In this document: piece by piece, positions 3,001 to 38,155 of the stretch | Position numbering within the stretch: position 1 is the first letter of the stretch | Layout: every line of letters starts with the position of its first letter | From: a virus | DNA: 42,447 nt | Reading direction: 5' to 3' (one strand) | IMG/VR virus record: IMGVR_UViG_3300045988_116402 | Notes under the pieces: model-generated | What the model was told of the DNA's origin: nothing | The model's database searches: none | What the model saw: the letters and a program-made list of their open reading frames with translations, nothing else | Position numbers and translations under genes: made by a program

Positions 3001-3585
3001 AAGATTATATGTATAATCGTCAAGTGCAGATCTAATTCCTTGAGTTTTTACTTTGTCTTGCCAATCAGTTAGTGATTGTTTTGCTGTGCCTGCCAACATA
3101 GCACCACCTGCAATAGTTTTGCCGATTGCCGCCGCCGCTCCATAGTCAAGTCTTTTATTCGTCACTGGCTGTGCATCTGCTGCTTTTTTCGCATAAGTGT
3201 TGCTTGCGTTTATATTAGCTATATTTATTTTATCTGCTAAGCTTGCTTTTGGTAATGCCGATAAAGTTGTGGTACCACCATTCCAAGGTTGCGGTCTGAC
3301 TGTTGATGTTGGTTTTACTGTTGTCGCAACAGCACTTTTAGCAAACGAGTTATTCGCTCTGTCGTTTGCAAGCTTAACCCTTTCCATGAGTGATAACTTT
3401 GGTGTTGTTTCTGAAGCTTTGGGTAATACAGACGTTGTTTCGGTTTTAGAAGTTTTGGAAACGGAAGGCGTACCCGAAGATACGCCATTTGTTTTTTTAT
3501 TTACAAAATAATTAGAATTTTTAGTAATTGCCTTATTAGCTTTTTTCTGCTCTTTTCTTAACTCATAATCACTTTTCCAACCCAT
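1..3585 (-). CDS. Giant virion-associated / polyvalent-type protein, N-terminal 1195 codons of a 1904-aa ORF that continues across the circular junction into 42371..40242
   Basis: Manual minus-strand translation from ATG 3585-3583 (GAGGTGA RBS upstream) is stop-free to base 1 (MGWKSDYELRKEQKK...). The last residues, MTEAEKEFAKIAF, lie in the terminal repeat and are the first residues of track ORF 40242..42410. The ORF is absent from the track because it has no stop inside the window. Confidence 0.85.
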   Translation of the reverse strand, partial: MGWKSDYELRKEQKKANKAITKNSNYFVNKKTNGVSSGTPSVSKTSKTETTSVLPKASETTPKLSLMERVKLANDRANNSFAKSAVATTVKPTSTVRPQPWNGGTTTLSALPKASLADKINIANINASNTYAKKAADAQPVTNKRLDYGAAAAIGKTIAGGAMLAGTAKQSLTDWQDKVKTQGIRSALDDYTYNLDNPQYSFGNTTSKNTLGYRLYQEAEENQNRAKAGLPKPLQTASDIGISLSSMALTLPTAVINPMLPTAIMATNTAGSKAYNLAKQGKTATEALGRGLVSGTLDYAAKKIGYEDFFNLAKNGTQGELMSALNSLDSNAKNAIIFGLKDIGYKYYSPSTLGALTWDAVRSGLAGAARTVADSLADTVYDKDSKINWNEVVQNAISDALFSVLNSGVEYIGNGIKSSVRGNTTENATSGTTLPTVANNQYANIPNMGMLPYGSQYPVNTANVNINNDGMSAVNYSNGNTKSNSDISMPVSKAERTNDTRSVITKLKDSIPELSDMKPVSTITGTEFQKGGKKITETVGEFFASLGNKVVRKGFGDIVVDVAGVKDSVAHGLGKRKAATFKSVPAVLENGKQIDFETNWKDRKYDTYIFAAPVEIKTGTGETEINYVAAVVKKSGTSNRYYLHEVVDRYGDVIYTKRKSNGSLIDNSATGFKTASLRDNNIPLLNNSISDTNQNYNTNLEKNIAILPTAAQSELSPITISDNNNALPTANDEQGVDVNYSDYTENEIKEAMTDFTPHDQGIINAHINESKRTLPMAKGNNSSSVMRFTLRTDAEKKLIEKYNARLAKTKERYKNKITDIKANNKEKLKTLKAENKEKLDRQDLAARMAVGRAKAETKRKYENKITDINVKHAEANERAAKKREMSKLGDKVLKNTRKLNSKIKYMPPEMQEKVRNTIKNIDTKAKSISGKSIKEAIEVKAYVELMQSKDPDFVVSKDLQEKIDRLNKIRVSDMSYGDLKELDDTLKGLQHEFATYNKTLGTVQHEFAKDMSAKAQVEVKEAKAKKNNFFNKIYNVESLNMSTVFNVLGNFNEGGAMSQIREEFIDGQRKATKYVKEATQLFDEFLNNSEYSKELKSWGGKKAERIDTGLVDNKGEKIYMTPGERIDIYLNSLNENNKASMENAGYTFMNLNALRKNDYKNLYRDVQPVILKPEDIKRIVGGMTEAEKEFAKIAF

Positions 3586-18110: not shown

Positions 18111-19796
18111 TCAAAACGGATTGCCCCAACGCTTAATTAATTCTTTTTTCTGCTCCGGTGTAGCTGCGTAGTAATCGTCATACTGGTCTGCTTCCCAGCG
18201 TGTTTTCTTCTGTGTCTTTCGTGTTTCTGTCATACTCTGCTGCTCTCTGATGCCGTATGTTATAGCAAGCCCCATAACAAGGTCGTCGTGTTCGCCTTCT
18301 TCCGCTTGCGGCTTACCTTTTATGCGGACAAATGATAGCATTTCGCGCAAAGTATCAACGTCATTAATAAGCTGTATCTCGTCCCTTGCTATCTGTACCA
18401 GATTAGCGATTATAACAGGTCTTGTTGCTGATGTAGTGCGGAAACCATACGATTTCTTAATCGCTCCCGTGAACGTGTCCGGCTGCTCTCTTACATACTG
18501 GCGATTATATCCCAATCTCGCTACCTCTCTAATCGGATATGTTGAGAAGTTAGCCTCTAAGCCTACAAGAGCAGTATTATAGTATTGTCCTAAGCAATAT
18601 ACTTGCCTTGAATACTCGTCCTCGTCGATATTATCATCATGTAATACTGCTACTTGCTCACCGGTTACATTATCTATTACATGAGCCGTAAAATAGTCGC
18701 TACCTTCTCCGGCTGTATCTCCACCCAGAACATACGGTCTTGACTTCTCCGGCTCTCGGAATATCTTGATATTGCCTCTGTCGTTGTCAATCCAACGGGC
18801 ATTAGTTATATATTGCCCGTCATAATCATATGCAAAATAACCACGTTTCAGCGGCTTACAGCCCTGTAAATCATTAATACGCTTAATAATAATAGCTGTA
18901 TCAAATACACAAGCTCCTGTTGCAATAAAGGCTTCTTCCGGTGTCGATGGATACTCTTGCTTGAATAAATTGATGTCGCCACCACAGTTATTTTTTATGC
19001 ACCATCTACGCCATGACAACTGCTCATTAGTAAGGTTATGTCTTGCCTTAAGCTCTTCTTCTTCCGGCGTAAGCTGGAAACCATCATAAAATCGGCTATA
19101 TTCCGCAAGCTCAAACCATGGGAAGAATACCGGAACAAAATCATTCTCACCGGCGACCGCAGAATCCCACAAACGCTTGAAATCATCATATCCGTTAGCT
19201 GTACTCTCTATAATAACCATTGTTCCGGGCTGTGCAGGTACAGACTGTAAAAGACCGTTAAGTGTTGCCATCTTATCCCCAGTCCAGAACGCGAACTCAG
19301 ATATATGTACATTACTGAGAGTATCAGAACGTCCTACACCGTCACCGCCTGCCGTTGCACATTTGATACGGCTATTAAGTCCAATGCCGCCCTCACTCTT
19401 AGCTGGGCTGTCAAATATAATCTCTCTTGCATTGCTCGCTTTTCTTGCCGGTTTAAGCATATCCGGCAGGTAAGAATAGAACAGCTTGGACATATTAAAC
19501 AAGTTAGTTGTGGCATCGTCTTTATGCGCTATTATCATACTGCTGATGTTAGGTTTGACCGCCGTCCTGTGAAATATTAATGCCTCCGTCAGCGTCGAGA
19601 ATCCCATCTGTCGAGCCTTAAGAATGATTAATCGTATCGGTTTACCTTGTCGTGCCTCATTACCAATTATCTTATATAATCGCTCTTGTGGCTCGTTGAG
19701 CCGGAGCGGAACAATCCTATTATCCTTAGTCCTAATGTGCAAAAATCGGCTTATATACTCTCTTGCATTGTATATATTAATCATGTTATCAGTCAT
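18111..19796 (-). CDS. terL: Terminase large subunit
   Basis: 561 aa. The ATPase-type segment ILKARQMGFSTLTEALIF and the nuclease-half acidic motifs are typical of Terminase_6-like TerL. Overlaps terS. Confidence 0.8.
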   Translation of the reverse strand: MTDNMINIYNAREYISRFLHIRTKDNRIVPLRLNEPQERLYKIIGNEARQGKPIRLIILKARQMGFSTLTEALIFHRTAVKPNISSMIIAHKDDATTNLFNMSKLFYSYLPDMLKPARKASNAREIIFDSPAKSEGGIGLNSRIKCATAGGDGVGRSDTLSNVHISEFAFWTGDKMATLNGLLQSVPAQPGTMVIIESTANGYDDFKRLWDSAVAGENDFVPVFFPWFELAEYSRFYDGFQLTPEEEELKARHNLTNEQLSWRRWCIKNNCGGDINLFKQEYPSTPEEAFIATGACVFDTAIIIKRINDLQGCKPLKRGYFAYDYDGQYITNARWIDNDRGNIKIFREPEKSRPYVLGGDTAGEGSDYFTAHVIDNVTGEQVAVLHDDNIDEDEYSRQVYCLGQYYNTALVGLEANFSTYPIREVARLGYNRQYVREQPDTFTGAIKKSYGFRTTSATRPVIIANLVQIARDEIQLINDVDTLREMLSFVRIKGKPQAEEGEHDDLVMGLAITYGIREQQSMTETRKTQKKTRWEADQYDDYYAATPEQKKELIKRWGNPF

Positions 19797-20307
19797 AATT
19801 ATAATCGCCGTCCTGCTTGCTTAAGAACTGCTCATATGTAACCGTTGCCGTAATCTCCTGCTTATCAGTAAGCCAACCGGCTATTTTTGCATATGTTTCC
19901 AACGCCTTAAGCTTATCATGCAGCCTTATAGTCATGCCGTACTTGTCTTGCCTAATGGACATGATAGCCGCCTGCTTGCTCGGATCTATCTCTGACGTGG
20001 GTATATACTTAAGCTTACCGTTCTCGTCGACATCTGCATAATCACAAATGTTAGAAAAACCGACCGCCGCCAGCTCTCTCAATACATCGTCTTGCGTTAT
20101 CTGTAGCCGCTTGTTTCGCTCCGTTTGCAACTCCTTGATGTAGTCTTGTATGTCCTTACGTTTGAGCAAGTTACGGGCATTACTGTTGCACCTGCCTTTG
20201 TCTTCCTCGCCATATGCGGCACCGTATGCCCTCGTTCCGTTATAGTCAATTATGTATTCTTGACAGAACAACCGTTCTTTTATTGCTTTCTTTTCTGACG
20301 TTCTCAT
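19789..20307 (-). CDS. terS: Terminase small subunit
   Basis: 172 aa. N-terminus KERLFCQEYIIDYNGTRAYGAAYG matches the Terminase_2 pattern F-x-x-E-Y-x-x-D-x-N-x-T-x-A. Directly upstream of terL. Confidence 0.7.
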   Translation of the reverse strand: MRTSEKKAIKERLFCQEYIIDYNGTRAYGAAYGEEDKGRCNSNARNLLKRKDIQDYIKELQTERNKRLQITQDDVLRELAAVGFSNICDYADVDENGKLKYIPTSEIDPSKQAAIMSIRQDKYGMTIRLHDKLKALETYAKIAGWLTDKQEITATVTYEQFLSKQDGDYNYD

Positions 20308-20325: not shown

Positions 20326-20352
20326 AAAAAAGCCCGGCTTACCAGTCCGGGC
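20326..20352 (-). terminator. Strong intrinsic terminator in the late-operon leader, 20 nt upstream of the terS start
   Basis: GCCCGG-cttaccagt-CCGGGC hairpin followed on the minus strand by TTTTTTATT, then the AGGAGGTGA RBS and ATG 20307. Confidence 0.7.
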
Positions 20353-20417
20353 AAAGAAAAGAATTAAAAATGAAAGGGAAATGCATTTTATACGCCTATA
20401 TATTACATTAATATAGT

Positions 20418-20467
20418 ATCATATCACGATGTTAGATTGTGTTATTATTGTGTTAGATTTTGTTAGG
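20418..20467 (-). promoter_or_regulatory. Candidate activator-dependent late promoter: extended -10 (TGaTATGAT) preceded by three phased CTAACA boxes
   Basis: Minus strand reads ...CCTAACAaaATCTAACAcaataataacacAATCTAACAtcgTGaTATGAT. The boxes (plus-strand TGTTAGATT at 20430-38 and 20451-59, TGTTAGG at 20461-67) are spaced 21 and 10 bp apart. There is no good -35. Confidence 0.4.
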
Positions 20468-20657
20468 TCTTTTTTGCGTTATTTGTCAGGCACTCAAAAA
20501 AATAAAAAGCTGGCAAAATAACACCTTAAACGCTCGAGCTGCAAAAAGATATACAAAAGATATACAACGCCACCGGAAAACCCCGAATTTACGGCATCCG
20601 TTGGACGTTATATATTAATACTGTCTTAATTATTGCTACATTATAACGCATAACTGC

Positions 20658-20682
20658 AAAAAATAAGCGGCATCTCTGCCGC
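20658..20682 (-). terminator. Intrinsic terminator of the RHH regulator gene
   Basis: GCGGCA-tctc-TGCCGC hairpin followed on the minus strand by TTATTTTTT, 9 nt after the stop at 20691. Confidence 0.65.
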
Positions 20683-20690
20683 CTACCTAA

Positions 20691-20909
20691 TTAATTATTA
20701 ATATTTTGTAATAGCTCTATCGCCTCCGTCAATCGCTCCCGGTCATCGTCCATTAACTTAATAATGTAAGCGTTAAGGCTCATGCCTGCCGCCGCCGCCT
20801 GAAGATTATACTTGTCTCGCTCTCCCTTGGGTACTCTTACCGTTATATTATCTAACTTGCTCTGGTGTCTCTTAATTGCTTCTGCTTGTGCCTTTGTATA
20901 TTTGCTCAT
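20691..20909 (-). CDS. Ribbon-helix-helix (CopG/Arc-like) regulator, divergent from the accessory cassette
   Basis: 72 aa. ITVRVPKGERDKYNLQAAAAGMSLNAYIIKLM fits a beta-strand-helix-helix RHH layout. AGGAGGTGA RBS. Confidence 0.6.
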   Translation of the reverse strand: MSKYTKAQAEAIKRHQSKLDNITVRVPKGERDKYNLQAAAAGMSLNAYIIKLMDDDRERLTEAIELLQNINN

Positions 20910-20951
20910 TCTGTCACCTCCTAATCATATTACTATTATATATCGCTACGC

Positions 20952-21033
20952 TCTATGCTTACATAGACACATTGTACAAATCTATGCTTGCATATTTAGT
21001 AATTGTGTCTATTGCAATCTATGAAAGCATAGA
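20952..21033. promoter_or_regulatory. Three operator-like palindromes TCTATG-N4-CATAGA
   Basis: Perfect copies at 20952-20967 (tctatgcttacataga) and 21018-21033 (tctatgaaagcataga), an imperfect copy at 20981-20996, and an extra half-site CATAGA at 21087-21092. Confidence 0.6.
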
Positions 21034-21040
21034 TTATAAT
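21012..21040 (+). promoter_or_regulatory. Sigma-A-type promoter of the accessory cassette (TTGCAA-17 bp-TATAAT)
   Basis: TTGCAA at 21012-21017, a 17-nt spacer containing operator 21018-21033, and TATAAT at 21035-21040. Confidence 0.6.
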
Positions 21041-21141
21041 AGGCTCATAAGTTAAGGAAAGTTGAAAAAACGAGAGAAAAAGAAAGCATAGAAGAGAAAA
21101 TAAGAGAAAACATCAAAAATCAAAAGAAAGGAAGAAAAAAC

Positions 21142-21309
21142 ATGAAAAACTACAAAGAACATCACACATCATTAACAAGAGGCTACATCAGAGTTAATCA
21201 GGAAGTTAAAGAAGAGTATAACGGCAGATTCGGCAAGGGCTACATAATCAAAAGACACAATTCTAACAGCACACAGTATTGTTACATTACTTATTACGTA
21301 GAAGCTTGA
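21142..21309 (+). CDS. Small protein (55 aa), first gene of the accessory cassette
   Basis: Manual translation MKNYKEHHTSLTRGYIRVNQEVKEEYNGRFGKGYIIKRHNSNSTQYCYITYYVEA. Below the track cut-off; the RBS is weak and purine-rich. Confidence 0.35.
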   Translation: MKNYKEHHTSLTRGYIRVNQEVKEEYNGRFGKGYIIKRHNSNSTQYCYITYYVEA

Positions 21310-21323
21310 GAGGAGGAATAATC

Positions 21324-21809
21324 ATGAAATATTTTGAAGGAATTACAACGATCGATGAACTTAAGAAAGTTTATAGAAAGCTCTGCCAGCTTAACCACCC
21401 GGACAACGGCGGCAACGTAACTATCATGGCAGAAATCAATAACGAGTACACAAAACTTTTTAACATCTTAAAAAATCAGCACAACACAAAAGCGGAAGCA
21501 GACACAACAGGCAACACAAGACCTATAAACGAATGTCCGGAAGAATACATCAACATCATATCGGAGCTTGTAACACTTAAGGGCTTAACCGTTGAGCTGT
21601 GCGGCTCTTGGATATGGATAAGCGGAGACACAAGAGAGCATAAAGACAAACTTAAATCAATCGGCTGCCGCTGGGCGAGCAAGAAAAAGATGTGGTATTG
21701 GAGAAGTGAAGCAGATGCAGTTAAAAGCCGTAAAACCAAATCAATGGATTATATCCGCAATAAATACGGCTCAACATCTTACAGCACATCAGATTTATTA
21801 CTTGCATAA
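21324..21809 (+). CDS. J-domain (DnaJ-like) protein with a C-terminal W-rich domain
   Basis: Start moved to the ATG after the GAGAGGAGGA RBS. ELKKVYRKLCQLNHPDNGG carries the HPD signature. C-terminus reads GSWIWISGDTREHKDKLKSIGCRWASKKKMWYW. Confidence 0.8.
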   Translation: MKYFEGITTIDELKKVYRKLCQLNHPDNGGNVTIMAEINNEYTKLFNILKNQHNTKAEADTTGNTRPINECPEEYINIISELVTLKGLTVELCGSWIWISGDTREHKDKLKSIGCRWASKKKMWYWRSEADAVKSRKTKSMDYIRNKYGSTSYSTSDLLLA

Positions 21810-21813
21810 TATA

Positions 21814-21869
21814 ATAGCCGCACTGATGAGCCGTAATGACGGCGAAACCCCTCCGGGGTCTGCGGATAG
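21814..21869 (+). ncRNA. Type I hammerhead self-cleaving ribozyme
   Basis: Stem I CCGCA (21818-22) pairs with UGCGG (21861-65). Core CUGAUGA (21823-29). Stem II GCCGU-AAUG-ACGGC (21830-43). GAA (21844-46). Stem III A-CCCC-UCC-GGGG-U (21847-59). Cleavage-site C at 21860. All invariant core positions are present. Confidence 0.85.
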
Positions 21870-21880
21870 GAGGCGAAGCA

Positions 21881-22303
21881 ATGAAAGAGGAATGTATAAG
21901 AATATACGCTAATATGTACAATTATGAGGCTGTAGCAGACATTGACACTATTAAAAAGTATGACGACTACGCCAAAAATGATATAATACATTTGCAGACA
22001 GCTATCAACCGTATGCAGGAATACCGCTCTAAACTGTACGAGCACGCTCAAAAATTAGCAACGGCAGAATATACGCTGCAAGTATCAATTAAGCGTGAGA
22101 AGCGTTATTACCGAGATAATAAGGTATACTACTATATCAATATTGCAAAGGTCTTTCCGGGTATCGGAACAGAAACAATATTAGCGGAAACCTATCCCGG
22201 AACAGAACGCAACAAAGCAATAGTAAGATACAACGAATTATGTAAGCAATACCCAAAAGCGGAACACATCAAAAGTATTGACAAGGCACGCTGGGAGAAA
22301 TAA
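21881..22303 (+). CDS. Hypothetical protein (140 aa) downstream of the ribozyme
   Basis: Start at the ATG after the AGGAGG RBS (21868-73). Helical N-terminus; no family recognised. Confidence 0.6.
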   Translation: MKEECIRIYANMYNYEAVADIDTIKKYDDYAKNDIIHLQTAINRMQEYRSKLYEHAQKLATAEYTLQVSIKREKRYYRDNKVYYYINIAKVFPGIGTETILAETYPGTERNKAIVRYNELCKQYPKAEHIKSIDKARWEK

Positions 22304-22344
22304 TATTAAGATTAAGGAATAACAATAAAAAAGGAGACGATTAA

Positions 22345-22578
22345 ATGAAAGATTGGCAATTTGAAAACGGCATTGAAGTATACGAAAAACACTGGGATAA
22401 AGACTTGCATTGCTTAGAAGTGTACAACAGGACCGAATACCTCGGCACTGTATATCCCGGGGATATTGAGAATATGCAATATTGTTTTAAACTATTAGAT
22501 AGCGGCAAAGACCCCATTAGTGATGGCTGGGAAGATGGTTGCGGAAACGCTTGTACATTAGATGGCTGGGGAGAATAA
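22345..22578 (+). CDS. Small acidic protein (77 aa) with C-terminal DGWEDGCGNACTLDGWGE motif
   Basis: ORF with an AAAGGAGA RBS. No family recognised. Confidence 0.55.
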   Translation: MKDWQFENGIEVYEKHWDKDLHCLEVYNRTEYLGTVYPGDIENMQYCFKLLDSGKDPISDGWEDGCGNACTLDGWGE

Positions 22579-22584
22579 CCTTAA

Positions 22585-22611
22585 GGGGGGCAATATCGCC
22601 CCCTATTTTTT
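22585..22611 (+). terminator. Intrinsic terminator between the 77-aa gene and the Cas8c-like gene
   Basis: GGGGGC-aatatc-GCCCCC hairpin followed by TATTTTTT. Confidence 0.65.
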
Positions 22612-22626
22612 GGAGGAATAAGTAAA

Positions 22627-23403
22627 ATGAATTTCGATAAAGTTTTAGATTTACACGATTTGCTTAACCTTGAAGAGATTATCCCTGTTGCTCACACTCG
22701 CATACTTCCGCACATCGGTGTATTATTATCCGATAACGGAAATTTTATCGGTGCAATGATTATCAACAATGAGCGTTGTTCTATTCCTTGTACAATCGAA
22801 TCAGAAAGCCGAACAAGCGGCATTGCACCACACATAATACATGATAAGATGTTATATATATGCGGCAATTACCCAAAATACGAACAACACCACAACACCT
22901 ATATGCAACAGCTATCCAATTATATAAGCAATGTTGACGATAAGCTCGCAAAAGCAGTTTTTATTTACCTGCAAAAAGGTACTTTAAATTTTGATATAAA
23001 AAATTTATTGTCACAACTGCATGTGAAAGAAGAGAAAGCGAATATAATATTTTTAACGCCTAACATTGACGATACAATAAACAAAAAATGGACTGAATAC
23101 TATGTTAATTCGCTTCCTAAGAACGGCATTTGCAGTTTAACAGGTGTACCTGATTACATACCATCGACATACCCGAGATACATTCGCAGTCATATTGACT
23201 TAGCAAGATTATTTGTAGGCAAACAAAACGATCTTGATTCGATGCCCGCATTGCTTCCCGGATATATAGCATCACAAAAAATAATCCATACTTTACAATT
23301 TGTTTGCTTTGAGGGTGAAAACTGGGCTTATAATGTAATGCGTAATCATTACAACGAATTACCCGACGATTTGAAAACAAAGGTTGATAATTATTTTAAC
23401 TGA
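22627..23403 (+). CDS. Cas8c/Csd1 N-terminal-domain-like protein (truncated type I-C large-subunit homologue)
   Basis: 258 aa. Motifs IIPVAHT, IPCTIESESRTSGIAPHIIHDKMLYICGNY, IYLQKGTL, CSLTGVP...YPRYIRSHIDLARLF and ASQKIIHTLQF appear in the order I recall for the first ~300 aa of Firmicutes Cas8c/Csd1 proteins (about 600 aa in full). Not verified by any search. Confidence 0.55.
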   Translation: MNFDKVLDLHDLLNLEEIIPVAHTRILPHIGVLLSDNGNFIGAMIINNERCSIPCTIESESRTSGIAPHIIHDKMLYICGNYPKYEQHHNTYMQQLSNYISNVDDKLAKAVFIYLQKGTLNFDIKNLLSQLHVKEEKANIIFLTPNIDDTINKKWTEYYVNSLPKNGICSLTGVPDYIPSTYPRYIRSHIDLARLFVGKQNDLDSMPALLPGYIASQKIIHTLQFVCFEGENWAYNVMRNHYNELPDDLKTKVDNYFN

Positions 23404-23414
23404 AAATTAAATAA

Positions 23415-23440
23415 GCCCCGGTTTCCCGGGGCATTTTTTA
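23415..23440. terminator. Bidirectional intrinsic terminator between convergent genes
   Basis: GCCCCGG-tttc-CCGGGGC hairpin with a T-run on the plus strand (ATTTTTTAT) and a T-rich tract on the minus strand. Confidence 0.75.
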
Positions 23441-23830
23441 TAGTAAATTTAACGCTTTTGAATGTAGTTGGCGTACATATGACACATTATATTTAAGCTC
23501 TGCGGCAATCTCTTTGTAGCTCTTATACTCGACATGGCGTTTATATAATATCTCAACCAGTATAGGATTTTTAAGCTCATGTATTTTATCAATTACAATG
23601 TGTCTTGTAATTATCAATTCCGCTTTTTTTCTGCTGATTTCTGTTTCTATGTCTACAACATTTGCGACATCCTCAGCCAATTTATCACTTGTTGATGCCT
23701 GTACTCTTTCGCCGACTTTCGCCGTTATGCTTTCCGCATCTTCTCTAAGCCTAACGAGTTCTTTTTCCTTCTGCTGTATTTGCACATCTAATAGCCGGAG
23801 CTGATTAAGATAAGTATTCGCATTCTTCAT
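23438..23830 (-). CDS. Late-gene transcriptional regulator candidate (DUF1492 / sigma-70 region-4-like)
   Basis: The track ORF begins at a TTG; the ATG at 23830 follows a GGTAGGTGA RBS. The C-terminus ILYKRHVEYKSYKEIAAELKYNVSYVRQLHSKAL is a region-4-type HTH. Last gene of the early operon. Confidence 0.55.
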   Translation of the reverse strand: MKNANTYLNQLRLLDVQIQQKEKELVRLREDAESITAKVGERVQASTSDKLAEDVANVVDIETEISRKKAELIITRHIVIDKIHELKNPILVEILYKRHVEYKSYKEIAAELKYNVSYVRQLHSKALNLL

Positions 23831-23834
23831 GTTA

Positions 23835-24038
23835 TCACCTACCCTCAATCATTTTTAACAGTTTTGTCATGTCATAAAAATTACATGGGTCTAATCCGGT
23901 GCTTTCCTTTATCTTTTTTCTGTGCCATGCAACAGCGTTATAGCTATAAGATATGCTTTTAGCCGCTTTTGTCATGTTTAAATTACTTTCGGCTAATGCT
24001 CTTATAAATACAATATCATCTGTTCTTATTCCCGGCAT
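23835..24038 (-). CDS. Small HTH DNA-binding protein
   Basis: 67 aa. NMTKAAKSISYSYNAVAWHRKKIKESTG is HTH-like. Confidence 0.45.
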   Translation of the reverse strand: MPGIRTDDIVFIRALAESNLNMTKAAKSISYSYNAVAWHRKKIKESTGLDPCNFYDMTKLLKMIEGR

Positions 24039-26667: not shown

Positions 26668-27663
26668 TTACTCAACCTCAATTCCTGTAATAGCCATGAA
26701 TATTTCTGCATTAAATTCAGGCAAGCTCTTGAAATACTCAATCAGTTTTTCCGGCATATCTTTATATGCCGCCTTATCATCTACGCCCTCAATTCTCGAT
26801 GCAGGAACACATTCCCATTTCTTTTCTTTCTTGTAGTAATCAAAAGCATTTGTAAATTTCGGATACCACCCATCCGCACATTCTCTTATATTTTCTTCAA
26901 CTTCATCGAATCGTTCCTTATCAATATTTAAGTTAAACAATTTATATCTGCCAGTCTCGTTAATGCACATAATAGAATATGCAAGACCTTCGCATTTTTT
27001 GATGTAATAGCAATTAAATATGCCGTCGCTGTTGCGTATGCCGTAGCTGTTGCTTATGCCGTAGCCGTTGCTTATGCCGTAGCCGTTGCTTATGCCGTCG
27101 CTGTTGCTTATGCCGTAGCCGTTGCTTATGCCGGAGCTGTTGCGTATGCCGTAGCCGTTGCTTATGCCGTAGCTGTTGCTTATGCCGGAGCTGTAGCGTA
27201 TGCCGTAGCCGTTGCTTATGCCGAAGCTGTTGCTTATGCCGGAGCTGTAGCGTATGCCGTAGCCGTTGCGTATGCCGTAGCTGTTGATATTTGTAGTATA
27301 ACTCTTAATTTCCTCCACAAATTCTTCAAAACTTAAAACTTTTACTATTTCGAGTATTTCAACAGCAACTTTGCTATCTTTATCATCCCTCGAAACAGCC
27401 CCATATCCTTTGACTTTTGCAAATTTATTCCATTGCACAAAGGGGTAATAACTAAAACAATCTAACGGATTTTCACAAAAATGTAAGCCGTTGTGGCACT
27501 TGTCCGGAAATCCCTCTTGTCTATGTACAACACCTTCCACATTGCCGTCTTTATTGGCATAGCAATAGTTATCTCCGTAATTTGCTGTCCAATCATAATT
27601 AAAAATCTTGTAACCCTCTGCAACAACCTGTAATCCGTTTAATACACTTCTATCCACTATCAT
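26668..27663 (-). CDS. Two-domain protein: conserved N-terminal phage domain (GLHFCENPLDCFSYYP motif, DUF7666-like), 15 hexapeptide repeats, and a C-terminal domain
   Basis: Start moved to the ATG after the ACAGGAGGAAG RBS (Met18 of the track ORF). The repeats read (S/R/I)(N/Y)(G/S)(Y/S/F/D)GI x15. Confidence 0.65.
   Translation of the reverse strand: MIVDRSVLNGLQVVAEGYKIFNYDWTANYGDNYCYANKDGNVEGVVHRQEGFPDKCHNGLHFCENPLDCFSYYPFVQWNKFAKVKGYGAVSRDDKDSKVAVEILEIVKVLSFEEFVEEIKSYTTNINSYGIRNGYGIRYSSGISNSFGISNGYGIRYSSGISNSYGISNGYGIRNSSGISNGYGISNSDGISNGYGISNGYGISNSYGIRNSDGIFNCYYIKKCEGLAYSIMCINETGRYKLFNLNIDKERFDEVEENIRECADGWYPKFTNAFDYYKKEKKWECVPASRIEGVDDKAAYKDMPEKLIEYFKSLPEFNAEIFMAITGIEVE
27019..27288. 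repeat. 15 tandem copies of an 18-bp unit (tatgccgtagccgttgct consensus), in frame within CDS 26668..27663
   Basis: Counted directly: 15 units x 18 bp, with variation confined to a few positions per unit. Confidence 0.95.
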
Positions 27664-27679
27664 TCTATTCTTCCTCCTG

Positions 27680-28099
27680 TCAGAACGGCAAATCATCGTC
27701 TTTAACGTCATCATCTATCGGATAAAAACCTTCCCCGATGCCGTCATTCTCACGTTTCCGGCCATTTTCCGCATTGCTTTTCTTGCTTTCGGCAAAGTAC
27801 TGTTCCTCTGCGACAACCTCAATCGTAGTCCTCTTGTTTCCGTAGTTGTCGTCCCAATTCCGGACCTGCAAACGTCCTACAACCGAAATCATCTGACCTT
27901 TTGTTAAATACTTTTCTGCAAACTCGCCCTGCTTACCGAAGGCAACGCACGGAATAAAATCCGCATCCGGTTCACCCTGACGTTTAAATCGTCTATTGAC
28001 CGCAAGTGAATATCTGGCAATCGCCAAAGGTTCTGCCCCCTGCGAGTATCTGACCTCCGGGTCTTTTGTTAGCCGGCCCATTAAAATCGATTTATTCAT
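27680..28099 (-). CDS. ssb: Single-stranded DNA-binding protein
   Basis: MNKSILMGRLTKDPEVRYS...OB-fold pattern and the acidic C-terminal tip DDDLPF. Confidence 0.9.
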   Translation of the reverse strand: MNKSILMGRLTKDPEVRYSQGAEPLAIARYSLAVNRRFKRQGEPDADFIPCVAFGKQGEFAEKYLTKGQMISVVGRLQVRNWDDNYGNKRTTIEVVAEEQYFAESKKSNAENGRKRENDGIGEGFYPIDDDVKDDDLPF

Positions 28100-28877: not shown

Positions 28878-29523
28878 TTCGCCTTCCCCCTTTATCCTGC
28901 TCTTTTGCCAACCATCCGTTTATAAACCGATTAATACCCTTTCGTGTTTTTCGTCGGCTTTCATTGGCGTTCAACCACCCCCTCATGGCTTTTAACTGCT
29001 GTATCACGTCGACAGCAGGGTACAGTTCCGCCCATTCTTGAACTGCTCCGTCATATATGGGATATTGGCTCTTATCGTTCAACGGTAATGTTATTATCGG
29101 CGGCTCGGAAGCTTGCTCCGAGCAGATGTCTTTATAATCATTAACATTATCATTATCATTTACATTATCATTATCATTTACATTAACATTATCATTAGGT
29201 TCTGTATTTTTCGTGTTTGGTTCGTGTTTGGTTCGTGTTTGGTTCGTGTTTGGTTCGTGTTCGGTTGCGTTTTGGTTTGTGTTTGGTTCGTCTCGGAACG
29301 CTGTTTTACCACCTTTTTTACCATTTGCATACCTTTGGTTATTCTTATCGATTTGTGGTTTAGCCATTAAAAAGATAGATTTTGCAATTCCACTTGTTTC
29401 TGGCACTTTGCCTTCGAAGCCGTATTCCATTAAAGCGGTCATACAGTTTTTAAAATCTTCCGGCGGCAGTTCTTTTATTGCATCAAAAAAACTTTTGTAG
29501 AATACTATGCTGTCCCTTTCCAT
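28828..29523 (-). CDS. Replisome organiser / DnaD-like replication initiator, with low-complexity repeats encoded by internal iterons
   Basis: N-terminus FYKSFFDAIKELPPEDFKNCMTALMEYGF and C-terminus RKTRKGINRFINGWLAKEQDKGG are typical of Firmicutes phage replisome organisers. It lies upstream of the loader gene. Confidence 0.55.
   Translation of the reverse strand: MERDSIVFYKSFFDAIKELPPEDFKNCMTALMEYGFEGKVPETSGIAKSIFLMAKPQIDKNNQRYANGKKGGKTAFRDEPNTNQNATEHEPNTNQTRTKHEPNTKNTEPNDNVNVNDNDNVNDNDNVNDYKDICSEQASEPPIITLPLNDKSQYPIYDGAVQEWAELYPAVDVIQQLKAMRGWLNANESRRKTRKGINRFINGWLAKEQDKGGRRNAVYNTEFEGVCGDTL
29137..29297. repeat. Putative origin of replication: AT-rich 18-bp repeats followed by 7-8 tandem 11-bp iterons (ttcgtgtttgg)
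   Basis: Four perfect 11-mers at 29210-29253, then degenerate copies to 29297. Just upstream, acattatcattatcattt-type repeats at about 29137-29200. Confidence 0.55.
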
Positions 29524-35683: not shown

Positions 35684-35712
35684 TTGATTTTTGTTTCATG
35701 ATGATATACAAT
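35684..35712 (+). promoter_or_regulatory. Repressor (maintenance) promoter TTGATT-17 bp-TACAAT
   Basis: Hexamers at 35684-89 and 35707-12. The promoter sits inside the 5' part of the track ORF, which argues for the downstream TTG start. Confidence 0.55.
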
Positions 35713-35739
35713 ATAAATAAGAAAAGAGGTGATGCTAAA

Positions 35740-36123
35740 TTGAAGGACAGATTAAAACAATTAAGAAAAACATTAGGCTTAACTCAACAGGCATTTGCTG
35801 ATAAATTGGGAGTAAAACGTAATACAGTCGGACAATGGGAATGTGGTATAAATCCCTTAACTGATCAGACAATTTTCTCTATTTGTCGTGAATTTGATGT
35901 AAACAAAGAGTGGCTTTGCACCGGAGAGGGCGAAATGTTTGTTATTAGAAGCGATGAGGAGGAGATAGCTGCATTTTTAGGTGATGTACTTTCCGAGGAA
36001 GGCGAAACATACAAAAAACAGCTTATTCTGGCTCTTGCAAATTTAAGTGATGAAGGTTGGAGAGGTATAAAAGAGTTTCTTGATGCACTTATTGCAGAAA
36101 AAAAGGAAAGAGGAGAGCTTTAA
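35740..36123 (+). CDS. CI-like repressor (XRE-family HTH)
   Basis: A TTG start at 35740 follows an AAAGAGGTGA RBS and gives (M)KDRLKQLRKTLGLTQQAFADKLGVKRNTVGQWECG, a canonical XRE HTH. Divergent from the early promoter. Confidence 0.8.
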   Translation: MKDRLKQLRKTLGLTQQAFADKLGVKRNTVGQWECGINPLTDQTIFSICREFDVNKEWLCTGEGEMFVIRSDEEEIAAFLGDVLSEEGETYKKQLILALANLSDEGWRGIKEFLDALIAEKKERGEL

Positions 36124-36952: not shown

Positions 36953-37135
36953 CATTAACCATACTGCCAACCTCGGCAATATGGTCACAAAATAAAAAAA
37001 TCCTCCTGTATTAGCAGTACAGAAGGATTAAGGAATAGCGGTTATGTGAAACCACTACTACAAAGAACACATTTAGTATATCACATGACCGCTTTAATTT
37101 CTACTCTTTTTTTAGAATTAAGGAGGTCTTTTTTT

Positions 37136-38155
37136 ATGAAGCGATTACCTAACGGAATGGGTGCTGTTGTAAACCTTGGAAACGGCAGACGTAAACCATA
37201 TGCCGCTCGTATTAGAGCCGGAATAAGTGCGAAAGGAGGAACTATATATAAATACCTCGGATATTATTCGACCAAACAGGAGGCTTTACAGGCTTTAACG
37301 GACTATAACAAAAATCCGTATGATGTTACAGCCGCAGAAGCTACCGTTGCGGATATGTGGGAAGTATTTAAACAAAGAAGATTTAAGGAAATATCAAAGA
37401 GCGGATGCAATATATATACTGCTGCGTATAAGCATTTAAAGCCGTTGCATAACACTCCTATAAAGGACATAAAAACATATCAGATACAAAGCCTGATTGA
37501 CAACTTAGATAGAAGCTGGCAGTCAAAGAGCCATGTTCAAACCTTGATGAACCAACTCTTCAACATTGCAATGGAACTTGATATTGCAACAAAAAACTAT
37601 GCAACATTTGTCAAGATTGGAGAGAAACCGCAATCAACTAAACATAAGATGTTTACACAGGAAGAAATAGACAGGCTGTTTAAAGCTGTGTTTGCGGAAG
37701 AGTTTGCTGATACGGTGTTAATACTTATTTATACCGGAATGCGACCTTCTGAATTGCTTAACGTGCGTATATCTGATGTTCATATTGAGGACAGATACAT
37801 GGTCGGAGGAATGAAAACCAAAGCCGGCAAAGATAGAGTAATACCGATCAACGACAAGGTATATCCTTTTATTCTTAAGAGATACAATACCGACAACAAT
37901 TTTTTGATTGAGCATAACGGTCTTGGTGTTTCTTATCCACAATATAAAAAGGCTTTTTTAGAGCTTATGGCAAGACTGGAAATGGAACATTTTCCCCATG
38001 ATGGCAGACATACGTTTGCTTCACTCGCCAATACCGCAGGAGTAAATGAAACCGCCGTCAAGCTAATAATGGGACATACTTCACAGGATATTACCGAGAG
38101 AGTATACACTCACAAAGCAATCTCCGAATTGTTGACAGCGGTTAATCAAATTTAA
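37136..38155 (+). CDS. int: Tyrosine recombinase (phage integrase)
   Basis: Start at the ATG after the AAGGAGG RBS. Catalytic-region motifs YTGMRPSEL, HDGRHTFAS and GHTSQDITERVYTH (R...HxxR...H...Y). The N-terminus is arm-binding-type. Confidence 0.9.
   Translation: MKRLPNGMGAVVNLGNGRRKPYAARIRAGISAKGGTIYKYLGYYSTKQEALQALTDYNKNPYDVTAAEATVADMWEVFKQRRFKEISKSGCNIYTAAYKHLKPLHNTPIKDIKTYQIQSLIDNLDRSWQSKSHVQTLMNQLFNIAMELDIATKNYATFVKIGEKPQSTKHKMFTQEEIDRLFKAVFAEEFADTVLILIYTGMRPSELLNVRISDVHIEDRYMVGGMKTKAGKDRVIPINDKVYPFILKRYNTDNNFLIEHNGLGVSYPQYKKAFLELMARLEMEHFPHDGRHTFASLANTAGVNETAVKLIMGHTSQDITERVYTHKAISELLTAVNQI

Follow-up and report, generated by a model that had tools for sequence, protein, structure and literature searches.

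What is a block of small genes, read against the general direction of the genome, doing beside the terminase genes of a temperate phage? The question is raised by the IMG/VR virus record IMGVR_UViG_3300045988_116402, a 42,447-nucleotide (nt) stretch of viral DNA (hereafter the window), in which the segment 20691-23440 fills the gap between the late regulator and the small terminase subunit gene terS, on the opposite strand to both. The segment carries a divergent gene for a probable ribbon-helix-helix (RHH) protein and an operon with a 55-amino-acid (aa) open reading frame (ORF), a J-domain protein gene, a hammerhead ribozyme, a 140-aa ORF, an acidic 77-aa ORF and, last, a homologue of the N-terminal part of the CRISPR protein Cas8c. 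The original prediction, made from the sequence alone, took this block for a self-contained, repressor-controlled anti-defence island. The explanation favoured here, to which we give about an even chance, is that a temperate Lachnospirales phage of gut bacteria has in this region an accessory operon that is immediate-early and self-limiting and probably encodes an anti-CRISPR mimicking Cas8c. Much of the argument draws on near-identical IMG/VR viral contigs (the sister phages L014-L016 and L094-L096), for one of which Metalachnospira (family Anaerotignaceae, order Lachnospirales) is predicted as the host. A search of 20600-23500 for near and distant DNA similarity against 50,697 GenBank phages returned zero matches.

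A stand-alone homologue of the Cas8c N-terminal domain

The last gene of the operon (22627-23403, + strand) encodes a stand-alone protein of 258 aa that is homologous to Cas8c's N-terminal domain (NTD). Its residues 16-182 match Cas_Csd1 (PF09709) at E 7.5e-16 and 58.3 bits (cut-off 27), and the PADLOC Cas8c model is matched at E 1.2e-25; the score against the NCBIfam equivalog TIGR01863, 28.1 bits, lies far under the cut-off of 218.65. The AlphaFold2 (AF2) model of the protein has a predicted local distance difference test (pLDDT) score of 88, and its Foldseek matches in the PDB are Cas8c chains only, with probability 1.0 and template modelling (TM) scores of 0.45-0.66. The look-alike of a Cas subunit that had been noticed from the sequence is therefore real, and it fits the paradigm of orphan viral cas genes as anti-CRISPRs set out by Katz et al.

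The protein belongs to a family of short proteins. A word-indexed search found 59 relatives, all of 153-333 aa, and a profile run exhaustively against 1.8 billion representatives gave 1,351 matches, the top ~30 of which are short and score at least 146 bits. Full-length Cas8c proteins (580-670 aa) follow at E ~1e-33, with profile positions 5-234 matching over their residues ~5-290, and one of them (P0219) sits in a cas3-cas5-cas8c-cas7-cas4-cas1-cas2 operon. In a rough neighbour-joining (NJ) tree of the N-terminal regions, 76 of the 86 short proteins, among them all 58 family members from the first search, fall into one split without full-length members, suggesting a family that is roughly monophyletic. 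Its members form at least 59 clusters when grouped at 90% identity and some 30 or more when grouped at 50%, and their uniform length and 27 invariant columns argue for purifying selection. Identity of the window protein to true Cas8c is 25-32%.

In Neisseria lactamica Cas8c the NTD (residues 1-259) is followed by a wedge (260-348, with the Cas3 recruitment loop at 276-297), an adaptor (349-457) and a C-terminal domain (458-582), and the loop that interacts with the protospacer-adjacent motif (PAM) is R69-S70-G71-S72, the D. vulgaris counterpart being GNG. The viral protein consists of the NTD and at most the start of the wedge, without the adaptor, the C-terminal (Cas11-like) domain or the ISAND..RGRF motif of full-length Cas8c. 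Its S-R62-T-S-G segment aligns with the PAM-interaction loop.

The family is represented in 92 loci of IMG/VR, as a rule immediately upstream of terS and among unrelated neighbours, and its genes mostly travel alone. A tblastn search against the GenBank phages found no match, so that among viruses the family is known from uncultured contigs only; two species-representative genomes carry the gene, both of them Lachnospiraceae metagenome-assembled genomes (MAGs). No cas5, cas7 or other cas gene was found as a neighbour in the window or in the inspected viral loci.

Precedent for such genes comes from Katz et al. (bioRxiv 10.1101/2023.06.24.545427; Nature 2024), who presented 358 orphan viral cas genes as anti-CRISPR candidates and found that AcrIB3, a Cas5 mimic without one interaction element, and AcrIB4, a homologue of the Cas8b C-terminus, yield a defective Cascade. 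According to a 2026 review, AcrIB3, AcrIB4 and AcrVIA2 remain the sole characterised Cas-homologue inhibitors. Table S3 of Katz et al. includes L014 (IMGVR_UViG_3300045988_088686), which has a 99%-identical copy of the window gene, as an orphan viral cas8c candidate; its cas8c entries also cover L019, L025, L067, L084, L089 and L090, and the hosts given for these seven contigs are Fusicatenibacter, Blautia_A, Enterocloster and Metalachnospira. By homology and by this analogy, the protein is most likely a type I-C anti-CRISPR that acts by subunit mimicry. Possible routes are occupation of the place of Cas8c at the Cas5 end, the offer of a free anchor groove to Cas3, and occupation of PAM sites.

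The acidic ORF just upstream (22345-22578, + strand; 77 aa, isoelectric point (pI) 4.26, 17 D/E against 6 K/R) has no match in Pfam, PHROGs, NCBIfam or PADLOC, and has only been seen adjoining the Cas8c-like gene in sister phages. Thus the anti-defence island first proposed holds, by homology and precedent, for the last gene of the block; it is plausible for the 77-aa ORF by analogy only, and unsupported for the other genes.

Other members of the family show further arrangements. P0002 (329 aa; L009-L013, e.g. L009 3856-4845) is a short Cas8c member fused to an N-terminal HTH_3 domain; it adjoins two integrase genes, and its architecture recalls fusions of anti-CRISPR (Acr) and anti-CRISPR-associated (Aca) proteins. 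In the phage represented by L001-L008 (>200 contigs), the Cas8c-like gene P0008 is translationally coupled to neighbours of 127 and 211 aa, and the early region encodes a protein matching Pfam Tad4 (anti-Thoeris; e.g. L001 37-381). An interpretation of the region in the window as an RNA anti-CRISPR or mini-array was rejected on the grounds that the window contains no CRISPR elements.

A putative divergent repressor with co-varying operators

The operon is faced by a divergent gene (20691-20909, - strand) for a probable RHH protein of 72 aa and pI 9.05. Among Pfam families HicB is passed marginally (21.7 bits, cut-off 21), while the scores for NikA-like (24.9 bits), Arc (15.7 bits) and RHH_10 are all under their own cut-offs; phrog_13890 is matched at E 2.2e-8, and several Arc-like PHROGs match weakly. 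The rightward promoter of the operon (21012-21040, + strand), TTGCAA (21012)-17-TATAAT (21035-21040), agrees with the consensus at 10 of 12 positions. It is accompanied by three copies of a 16-bp palindrome with the consensus TCTATG-N4-CATAGA: the predicted operators O1 (TCTATGCTTACATAGA, 20952-20967, perfect), O2 (TCTATGCTTGCATATT, 20981-20996, two mismatches) and O3 (TCTATGAAAGCATAGA, 21018-21033, perfect), the last of which fills the promoter spacer. O1 and O3 amount to two exact 12-base matches 66 bp apart, far beyond chance. Reading of the sequence gave a candidate -10 box for the leftward RHH promoter (minus-strand TATAAT, 20935-20940), whose corresponding -35 region would fall within O1.

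The strongest evidence for repressor control, a claim of the original prediction that is upheld, comes from the sister phages and from the more diverged L097. The operators of L096, whose RHH protein is 100% identical to that of the window, are the same as in the window; in L014 and L094 (RHH 85-87% identical) they become TCTATAC..GTATAGA, a symmetric change of both half-sites; in L015 (71%), L016 (73%) and L097 (41%) they are different repeats. In every case the operators occupy the same three positions, and the -35 box, the -10 box and the leader are constant across all variants. Since the operators change with the RHH variant while these elements stay constant, the RHH protein and its putative operators are best read as a single specificity unit that is swapped on a constant promoter. 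Such co-variation is the pattern expected if the RHH protein binds the predicted sites, and the repressor/operator pair is the best-supported functional inference for the locus. The block is also self-contained, as had been proposed: it has a promoter of its own and a terminator at either end, and its regulator is divergently encoded. In distant phages an HTH_26 gene, with its own palindromes over the -10 box, is divergent from a J-domain operon.

The same features bear on two other explanations. One is that the block is a lysogenic-conversion (moron) cassette, or a prophage exclusion or defence cassette, expressed from the prophage to the lysogen's advantage, in which the Cas8c fragment prevents self-targeting of the integrated prophage or modulates the host CRISPR system. 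A counter-oriented block with its own promoter and bracketed by terminators is typical of morons, the phage is temperate (it has a CI-like repressor and an integrase) and the cargo is swappable; in addition, a candidate promoter at 22278, described below, could express the 77-aa ORF independently of the repressor. However, a dedicated repressor and an operator that fills the promoter spacer point to a main promoter kept off at steady state, and PADLOC matched no defence model beyond Cas8c. We consider this explanation unlikely, while allowing it a small but real chance. The other is that the region is a second immunity or antirepressor switch like P22 immI, with the RHH protein as a Mnt-like repressor and a product of the operon, e.g. 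the J-domain protein acting through DnaK, inactivating the prophage repressor or settling the choice of lysis or lysogeny in another way. The divergent RHH repressor, the multiple operators and the counter-oriented operon in the late region match the immI layout, and the arrangement of leftward terL, terS and a small regulator followed by a rightward J-domain operon recurs in many divergent phages; but no homology to Ant, KilAC, Bro-N or another antirepressor was found with Pfam and PHROGs, and sister phages without the J-domain gene retain the regulator and promoter. This switch is improbable, and we rate it slightly below the moron explanation.

Between promoter and first gene lies a purine-rich leader (~21047-21141, + strand; 95 nt, 84% purine) with a degenerate 10-nt periodicity, for which no match was found in Rfam. 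A repeat of AAAACAAGAG at 21067-21150 has a 10-nt period, 8.5 copies and 65% matches, and of two GGA motifs one lies at the 5' end and the other in the ribosome-binding site of the 55-aa ORF. The leader is conserved despite the regulator and operator swaps, and may be a site for an RNA-binding protein.

Mosaicism across sister phages

Comparison of the sister phages shows that the two halves of the cassette are lost or replaced separately. In L016 the stretch between the end of the 55-aa ORF and the middle of the 140-aa ORF has been cleanly deleted (L016 5530-5600), and the 55-aa ORF has ATA in place of the ATG start codon (L016 5384-5386). In L014 an ORFan of 111 aa replaces the J-domain gene together with the hammerhead and the 140-aa ORF's 5' part. 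Conversely, L094 and L096 keep the J-domain module, and a 166-aa ORFan plus a truncated helix-turn-helix (HTH) gene of 47-50 aa replace the 77-aa ORF and the Cas8c-like gene. In L097 two other ORFans separate a J-domain gene (73% identical) from a 140-aa homologue downstream, and the hammerhead is missing. The replacement cargo genes of the sister phages have no family matches, all being ORFans. L016 is a naturally occurring mutant whose only remaining cargo is the 77-aa ORF and the Cas8c-like gene.

Because sister phages lose or swap either half, no part of the cassette is essential, and the earlier statement that none of its genes is needed for replication, packaging or morphogenesis is borne out by these natural losses and replacements. 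The idea of the cassette as a conserved functional unit, by contrast, fails: the Cas8c-like gene is alone in most of its 92 viral loci. In one distant lineage (L063/L117) J-domain, 140-aa-like and Cas8c-like genes are co-oriented in one cluster (43%, 27% and 48% identity, respectively); outside that lineage the three families travel apart. The part with the J-domain gene, the hammerhead and the 140-aa ORF is accordingly best described, from these gene contents, as a module separate from the Cas8c-like gene.

The J-domain protein and its neighbours

The first gene of the operon is a basic ORF of 55 aa (21142-21309, + strand; pI 9.3). It has no family match in Pfam, PHROGs, NCBIfam or PADLOC, and is kept in sister phages only, at 84-94% identity. 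A 55-aa ORF upstream of a distant J-domain gene was considered as its counterpart and rejected, there being no similarity between the two.

The J-domain protein (21324-21809, + strand; 161 aa) combines an N-terminal J domain with a C-terminal alpha/beta domain, and its true start is the ATG at 21324, not an upstream TTG. Its widespread family counts at least 369 homologue clusters, of ~160 aa, and the protein matches phrog_15863 at E 5.7e-52. The HPD motif (H25-P26-D27) is invariant in 31 family sequences, and all 31 members scanned match PF00226 (best E 6.1e-9), nine of the 31 also matching DUF5710; the window protein alone scores 19.8 bits against PF00226, under the Pfam cut-off of 27.8. In a PDB profile search the best sequence matches were SV40 T-antigen J domains (E 2e-7). 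Over residues 10-54, the large-T and small-t antigens of polyomaviruses (HPDKGGD vs HPDNGG) rank above bacterial DnaJ. The AF2 model has a pLDDT of 90. The C-terminal domain contains the conserved sequence ELCGSWxWxSGxT...WAxKKKMWYW and is weakly DUF5710-like; Foldseek searches of PDB and BFVD returned only weak DUF5710 neighbours and no solved fold match. With the HPD motif intact, recruitment of host DnaK is proposed, and the protein most likely brings DnaK to a client bound by its C-terminal domain.

Relatives in cultured phages include those of the large virulent Cellulophaga phage phi4:1 (gp120) and of Fusobacterium phage Fnu1 (gp080), in both of which the gene sits among runs of small early-type genes. 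The presence of the family in virulent phages among early genes argues for a part in lytic development or host takeover rather than lysogeny. It speaks against a prophage-expressed cassette, and also against an immI-like switch, since virulent phages lack a lysogeny switch.

The 140-aa ORF (21881-22303, + strand; pI 9.0), whose start was confirmed by the family alignment, is preceded by a Shine-Dalgarno sequence, AGGAGG, 8 nt upstream of its start codon and 7 nt past the predicted ribozyme cleavage site. It has no match in Pfam, PHROGs, NCBIfam or PADLOC, and a PDB profile search of its family gave noise only. Of 47 loci, at least 16 have a homologue within a few kb of the J-domain gene, distant phages among them.

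Hammerhead and neighbouring ribozymes

The intergenic gap between the J-domain gene and the 140-aa ORF holds a type I hammerhead on the coding strand (21818-21865, + strand), composed of stem I CCGCA/UGCGG, the core CUGAUGA, stem II GCCGU-AAUG-ACGGC, GAAA, stem III CCCC-UCC-GGGG and U-C. The core is complete (CUGAUGA, GAAA, the A-U closing pair and C17), the three stems are paired next to it, and cleavage is predicted between C21860 and U21861. An extra 5' hairpin may start at 21796, as in RAGATH-1. The minimum-energy fold recovers the three-way junction, and the hammerhead descriptor gave one hit in the window, whereas 300 random windows matched to it in dinucleotide-transition composition yielded one hit in total (~0.003 per window). 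The element is conserved in three sister loci (L015, L094 and L096), and is missing in L097 as a precise indel.

Other self-cleaving ribozymes occur beside J-domain genes of this family. Nine of ~50 J-domain loci carry one at Rfam level, and the three sisters add the type I hammerhead. Twister-P5 ribozymes are found in L113, where the ribozyme starts 16 nt after the J-domain stop codon, and in L109; type II hammerheads are found in L129, where the ribozyme ends 40 nt before the J-domain start codon, and in L124, L125, L105, L108 and L111. Prophage hammerheads are known to cleave polycistronic RNAs (Perreault et al. 2011, PMC3088659), and in Agrobacterium and Legionella they flank ardA, an anti-restriction gene; hammerheads around further short blocks of prophage genes were described as well (PMC3088659). 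The occurrence of different ribozyme classes at like positions near the same genes is a published, unexplained association, and was used in discovering twister, pistol and hatchet.

In L133 a pistol ribozyme (3114-3184, - strand; 63.9 bits) lies ~800 nt upstream of the J-domain gene on the opposite strand, and is placed in the divergent transcript, not in the J-domain operon. In a Lachnospiraceae MAG, a GA-cis RNA (RF02987; L139 14001-14087) whose 41.6 bits exceed the gathering score is located ~5 kb downstream of the gene for the Cas8c-like protein. An enrichment of ribozymes specific to J-domain genes was considered, and is not demonstrated: ribozyme density is similar in J-domain loci (~1 per 36 kb) and in Cas8c-like loci without a J-domain gene (~1 per 69 kb). 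No self-cleaving ribozyme was found in the cultured phages with a J-domain gene, and no specific link between ribozymes and J-domain genes is reported in the literature searched.

Proposed mechanism and its weighing

In the proposed mechanism the operon would be read against the genome flow from its near-consensus, host-type promoter, and the divergent RHH repressor would shut that promoter by binding the three predicted palindromic operators. A naive cell contains no RHH repressor when the DNA enters, so that the operon should fire at once; as RHH protein accumulates it would turn the operon off, and the operon would be silent in the prophage. A host-type promoter, a burst on entry and a later dedicated shut-off would suit an immediate-early operon for anti-defence or host takeover, and we infer its timing from this design, whose logic is also that of P22 immI.

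Two modules would be expressed in this way. In the first, comprising the 55-aa ORF, the J-domain protein, the hammerhead and the 140-aa ORF, the hammerhead would cut the mRNA 20 nt upstream of the 140-aa AUG, uncoupling the two cistrons. The upstream RNA would then end in a compact folded ribozyme with a 2',3'-cyclic phosphate, and the downstream RNA would start with a 5'-OH, as 5'-UGCGGAUAGGAGG, just before the ribosome-binding site. With such distinct RNA ends the two cistrons could differ in stability and translation, and the placement of the hammerhead fits the common proposal that such ribozymes uncouple cistrons. The second module comprises the acidic 77-aa ORF and the Cas8c NTD homologue. 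Structural work on Cas8c places Cas5-end docking to Cascade in this N-terminal part. A Cascade that takes up the viral protein would be non-productive, as would Cas3 or PAM sites held by it.

Several observations weigh against this account. The most direct concerns the expression of the last gene: an intrinsic terminator (22585-22612, + strand), consisting of a hairpin at 22585-22604 with a 7-bp stem and 6 G-C pairs followed by a T run, leaves 15 nt, without a promoter, between itself and the start codon of the Cas8c-like gene. With so strong a terminator directly before the gene, its expression from the operon is uncertain; in other phages the Cas8c-like gene is translationally coupled to the upstream gene, without a terminator. 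As the PAM loop is retained, the protein may still have some DNA-related activity and need not be a dead decoy. No type I-C-like repeat, CRISPR array or spacer, or tRNA was found in the window, and no CRISPR element there links the gene to a given host system; a search of the other ORFs with PADLOC, Pfam and PHROGs matched no defence or anti-defence model. The likeness to Acr operons on which the original prediction drew is also partial: the overlapping inverted-repeat operators agree with it, and the divergent RHH gene and the lack of a downstream HTH Aca do not.

The remaining points concern the ribozyme. The hammerhead scores under every Rfam gathering score, with 23.8 bits (E 0.0096, threshold 52) for HH9 and 27.4 bits (E 0.12, threshold 56.3) for the RAGATH-1 hammerhead (RF03152), and its fold z-score is merely -0.86. 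With a stem I of 5 bp and no obvious tertiary contact it could be slow. The loop and stem III changes in L096 preserve pairing, within a set of only three distinct sequences that makes for thin covariation. A ribozyme is recognisable in ~12 of ~50 J-domain loci, and type II hammerheads also occur in two of 12 Cas8c-like loci without a J-domain match.

If these points are pressed, the Cas8c-like gene becomes an inert remnant of a captured cas8c, the hammerhead a chance or decayed element, and the region an uncoordinated junkyard of ORFans. The sub-threshold hammerhead, the terminator ahead of the Cas8c-like gene and a cassette composition that is not conserved all favour such an explanation. 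It is nevertheless very improbable in our estimation: the short Cas8c family shows signs of purifying selection and occurs in 92 viral loci, the hammerhead has a perfect core of a kind expected so rarely per window by chance, and the element is kept in four sister genomes with its pairing preserved. A different emphasis is that a divergent small repressor with a counter-oriented J-domain operon next to the terminase genes is a conserved immediate-early switch of many Firmicutes phages, in which ribozymes set the relative dosage of neighbouring proteins for host takeover or anti-defence and the J-domain protein with DnaK remodels or dismantles a host complex, possibly Cascade, with the Cas8c-like protein as decoy. 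We hold this idea to be a long shot, less probable than an immI-like switch. The favoured explanation remains that of an immediate-early accessory operon with a probable Cas8c-mimic anti-CRISPR.

Phage setting and other features of the window

The window is the genome of a temperate tailed phage with genes mostly on the minus strand. The CI-like HTH repressor (35698-36123) and the integrase (37046-38155) are on the plus strand. The flanks of the accessory block are as first described: on one side terS (19789-20307, - strand), which matches PF03592, with the large terminase subunit gene terL (18111-19796, - strand) beyond it, and on the other the late regulator (23438-23848, - strand), which has a sigma-70 region 4 domain and matches phrog_36. 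All ten elements listed for the block were found, with four amendments: the start of the J-domain gene, the sub-threshold status of the hammerhead, a terminator for the RHH gene and a promoter-like site at 22278. The RHH-gene intrinsic terminator (20658-20683, - strand), GGCGGCA-GAGA-TGCCGCT followed by a T run, was missed by the terminator scan and found by reading the minus strand directly. The promoter-like site, TTGACA-17-TAATAT (22278-22306, + strand), lies at the end of the 140-aa ORF and is a consensus match only. Its segment is kept in the deletion variants L014 and L016, and it is a possible internal promoter for the 77-aa ORF. At the far end, a bidirectional intrinsic terminator (23415-23432, both strands) is common to the operon and the converging late-regulator gene.

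Some repeats lie elsewhere in the window. Just upstream of terS, 20326-20466 (- strand) contains three ATCTAACA repeats, and Tandem Repeats Finder (TRF) reports TGTTAGATTG x3.6 at 20430-20466. A terminator-like hairpin with a U run (20352-20326, - strand; 9-nt loop) lies ~60 nt downstream of these repeats and ends ~5 nt short of the terS ribosome-binding site. The segment resembles a late promoter followed by a terminator that needs read-through (cf. lambda Q-type control), and the late regulator has a weak match to the Q-like phrog_79 (E 0.038). Two neighbouring tandem arrays at 29137-29291, one of an ATCATT-type 18-nt unit x3.4 and the other of TTCGTGTTTGG (11 nt) x7.5, are iteron-like and probably mark a replication origin in the early region. 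An 18-nt unit repeated x14.9 (88% matches) at 27019-27286, within an ORF of 348 aa matching DUF7666 (26668-27714, - strand), would encode a 6-residue protein repeat.

Significance and comparison with known systems

Nothing here overturns current views, and most of the pieces were anticipated by published work. The orphan viral cas homologue, the prophage hammerhead, the phage J-domain protein and the repressor-gated operon are each of a known kind. The claim that the combination was undescribed thus stands in part: the sister copy appears in Table S3 of Katz et al. and ardA-flanking hammerheads were reported in 2011, while three aspects are not described in the literature searched, namely the architecture of a small divergent repressor and J-domain operon beside the terminase genes, the series of co-varying operators and repressors, and a short Cas8c family reduced to the NTD with the PAM loop kept. 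If the 258-aa protein inhibits type I-C systems, an anti-CRISPR derived from a large subunit's PAM-reading domain would be known for the first time, viral cas genes turned inhibitors would have a fourth experimentally relevant case, and type I-C editing tools would gain a candidate off-switch. The locus is also a compact natural test bed for the role of self-cleaving ribozymes in bacteria and phages, with one promoter, one repressor, one ribozyme and two flanking genes, and with sister genomes with and without the ribozyme and each module as natural comparisons. The operator/repressor co-variation is a clean example of swapping of regulator and operator specificity. Should the ribozymes indeed set the dosage of neighbouring genes, the locus would give the first functional handle on the clustering of hammerhead, twister and pistol ribozymes near phage genes.

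The closest parallels to the Cas8c-like protein are AcrIB3 and AcrIB4, likewise stand-alone, diverged homologues of a type I Cascade subunit encoded outside a cas operon, which have lost an element for downstream function; a further likeness is that the short Cas8c family forms a clade apart from true Cas proteins. The two Acr proteins differ in source, Cas5 and the Cas8b C-terminus as against the N-terminal PAM domain of the I-C large subunit, and in divergence, with 38% identity to true Cas proteins compared with 25-32% here; experimental support exists only for AcrIB3, AcrIB4 and AcrVIA2(.1). With Cas8c/Csd1 itself (PF09709; PDB 8DEJ, 8G9U) the match covers the N-terminal ~260-290 residues, including the PAM loop R-S/T-S-G, but the viral protein is under half as long, most or all of the wedge, with its Cas3 recruitment loop, is gone, and there is no cas5 or cas7 neighbour.

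In its regulation the operon resembles acr-aca operons, which likewise have a strong promoter with inverted-repeat operators, a small dedicated repressor (whose binding is predicted here) and fast-swapping ORFans. In acr-aca operons, however, the autorepressor is co-transcribed downstream and is usually an HTH protein, whereas here an upstream, divergent and separately terminated RHH gene is found, and the operon adds genes without a CRISPR link. In the immI region of P22 (mnt, arc-ant), a divergent RHH repressor and its operators accompany a counter-oriented operon among late genes. The layout of the block is alike, but its cargo is unrelated and includes no antirepressor homologue.

The J-domain protein has counterparts in Rki of the T4-like phage RB43, the one phage J-domain protein so far characterised, which acts via DnaK (Perrody et al. 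2012, PMC3486835), and in the polyomavirus T antigens, likewise small viral proteins that begin with a J domain whose HPD motif is intact; its C-terminal domain (CGSWxW...WYW) is unrelated to theirs. Finally, as in known prophage ribozymes (PMC3088659; Weinberg, Weinberg & Hammann 2019, PMC6765202), the hammerhead is intergenic in a phage polycistronic unit, and related loci have ribozymes of other classes at corresponding positions. Compared with those ribozymes, the hammerhead of the window is a minimal type I element, present as a single copy rather than as a flanking pair.

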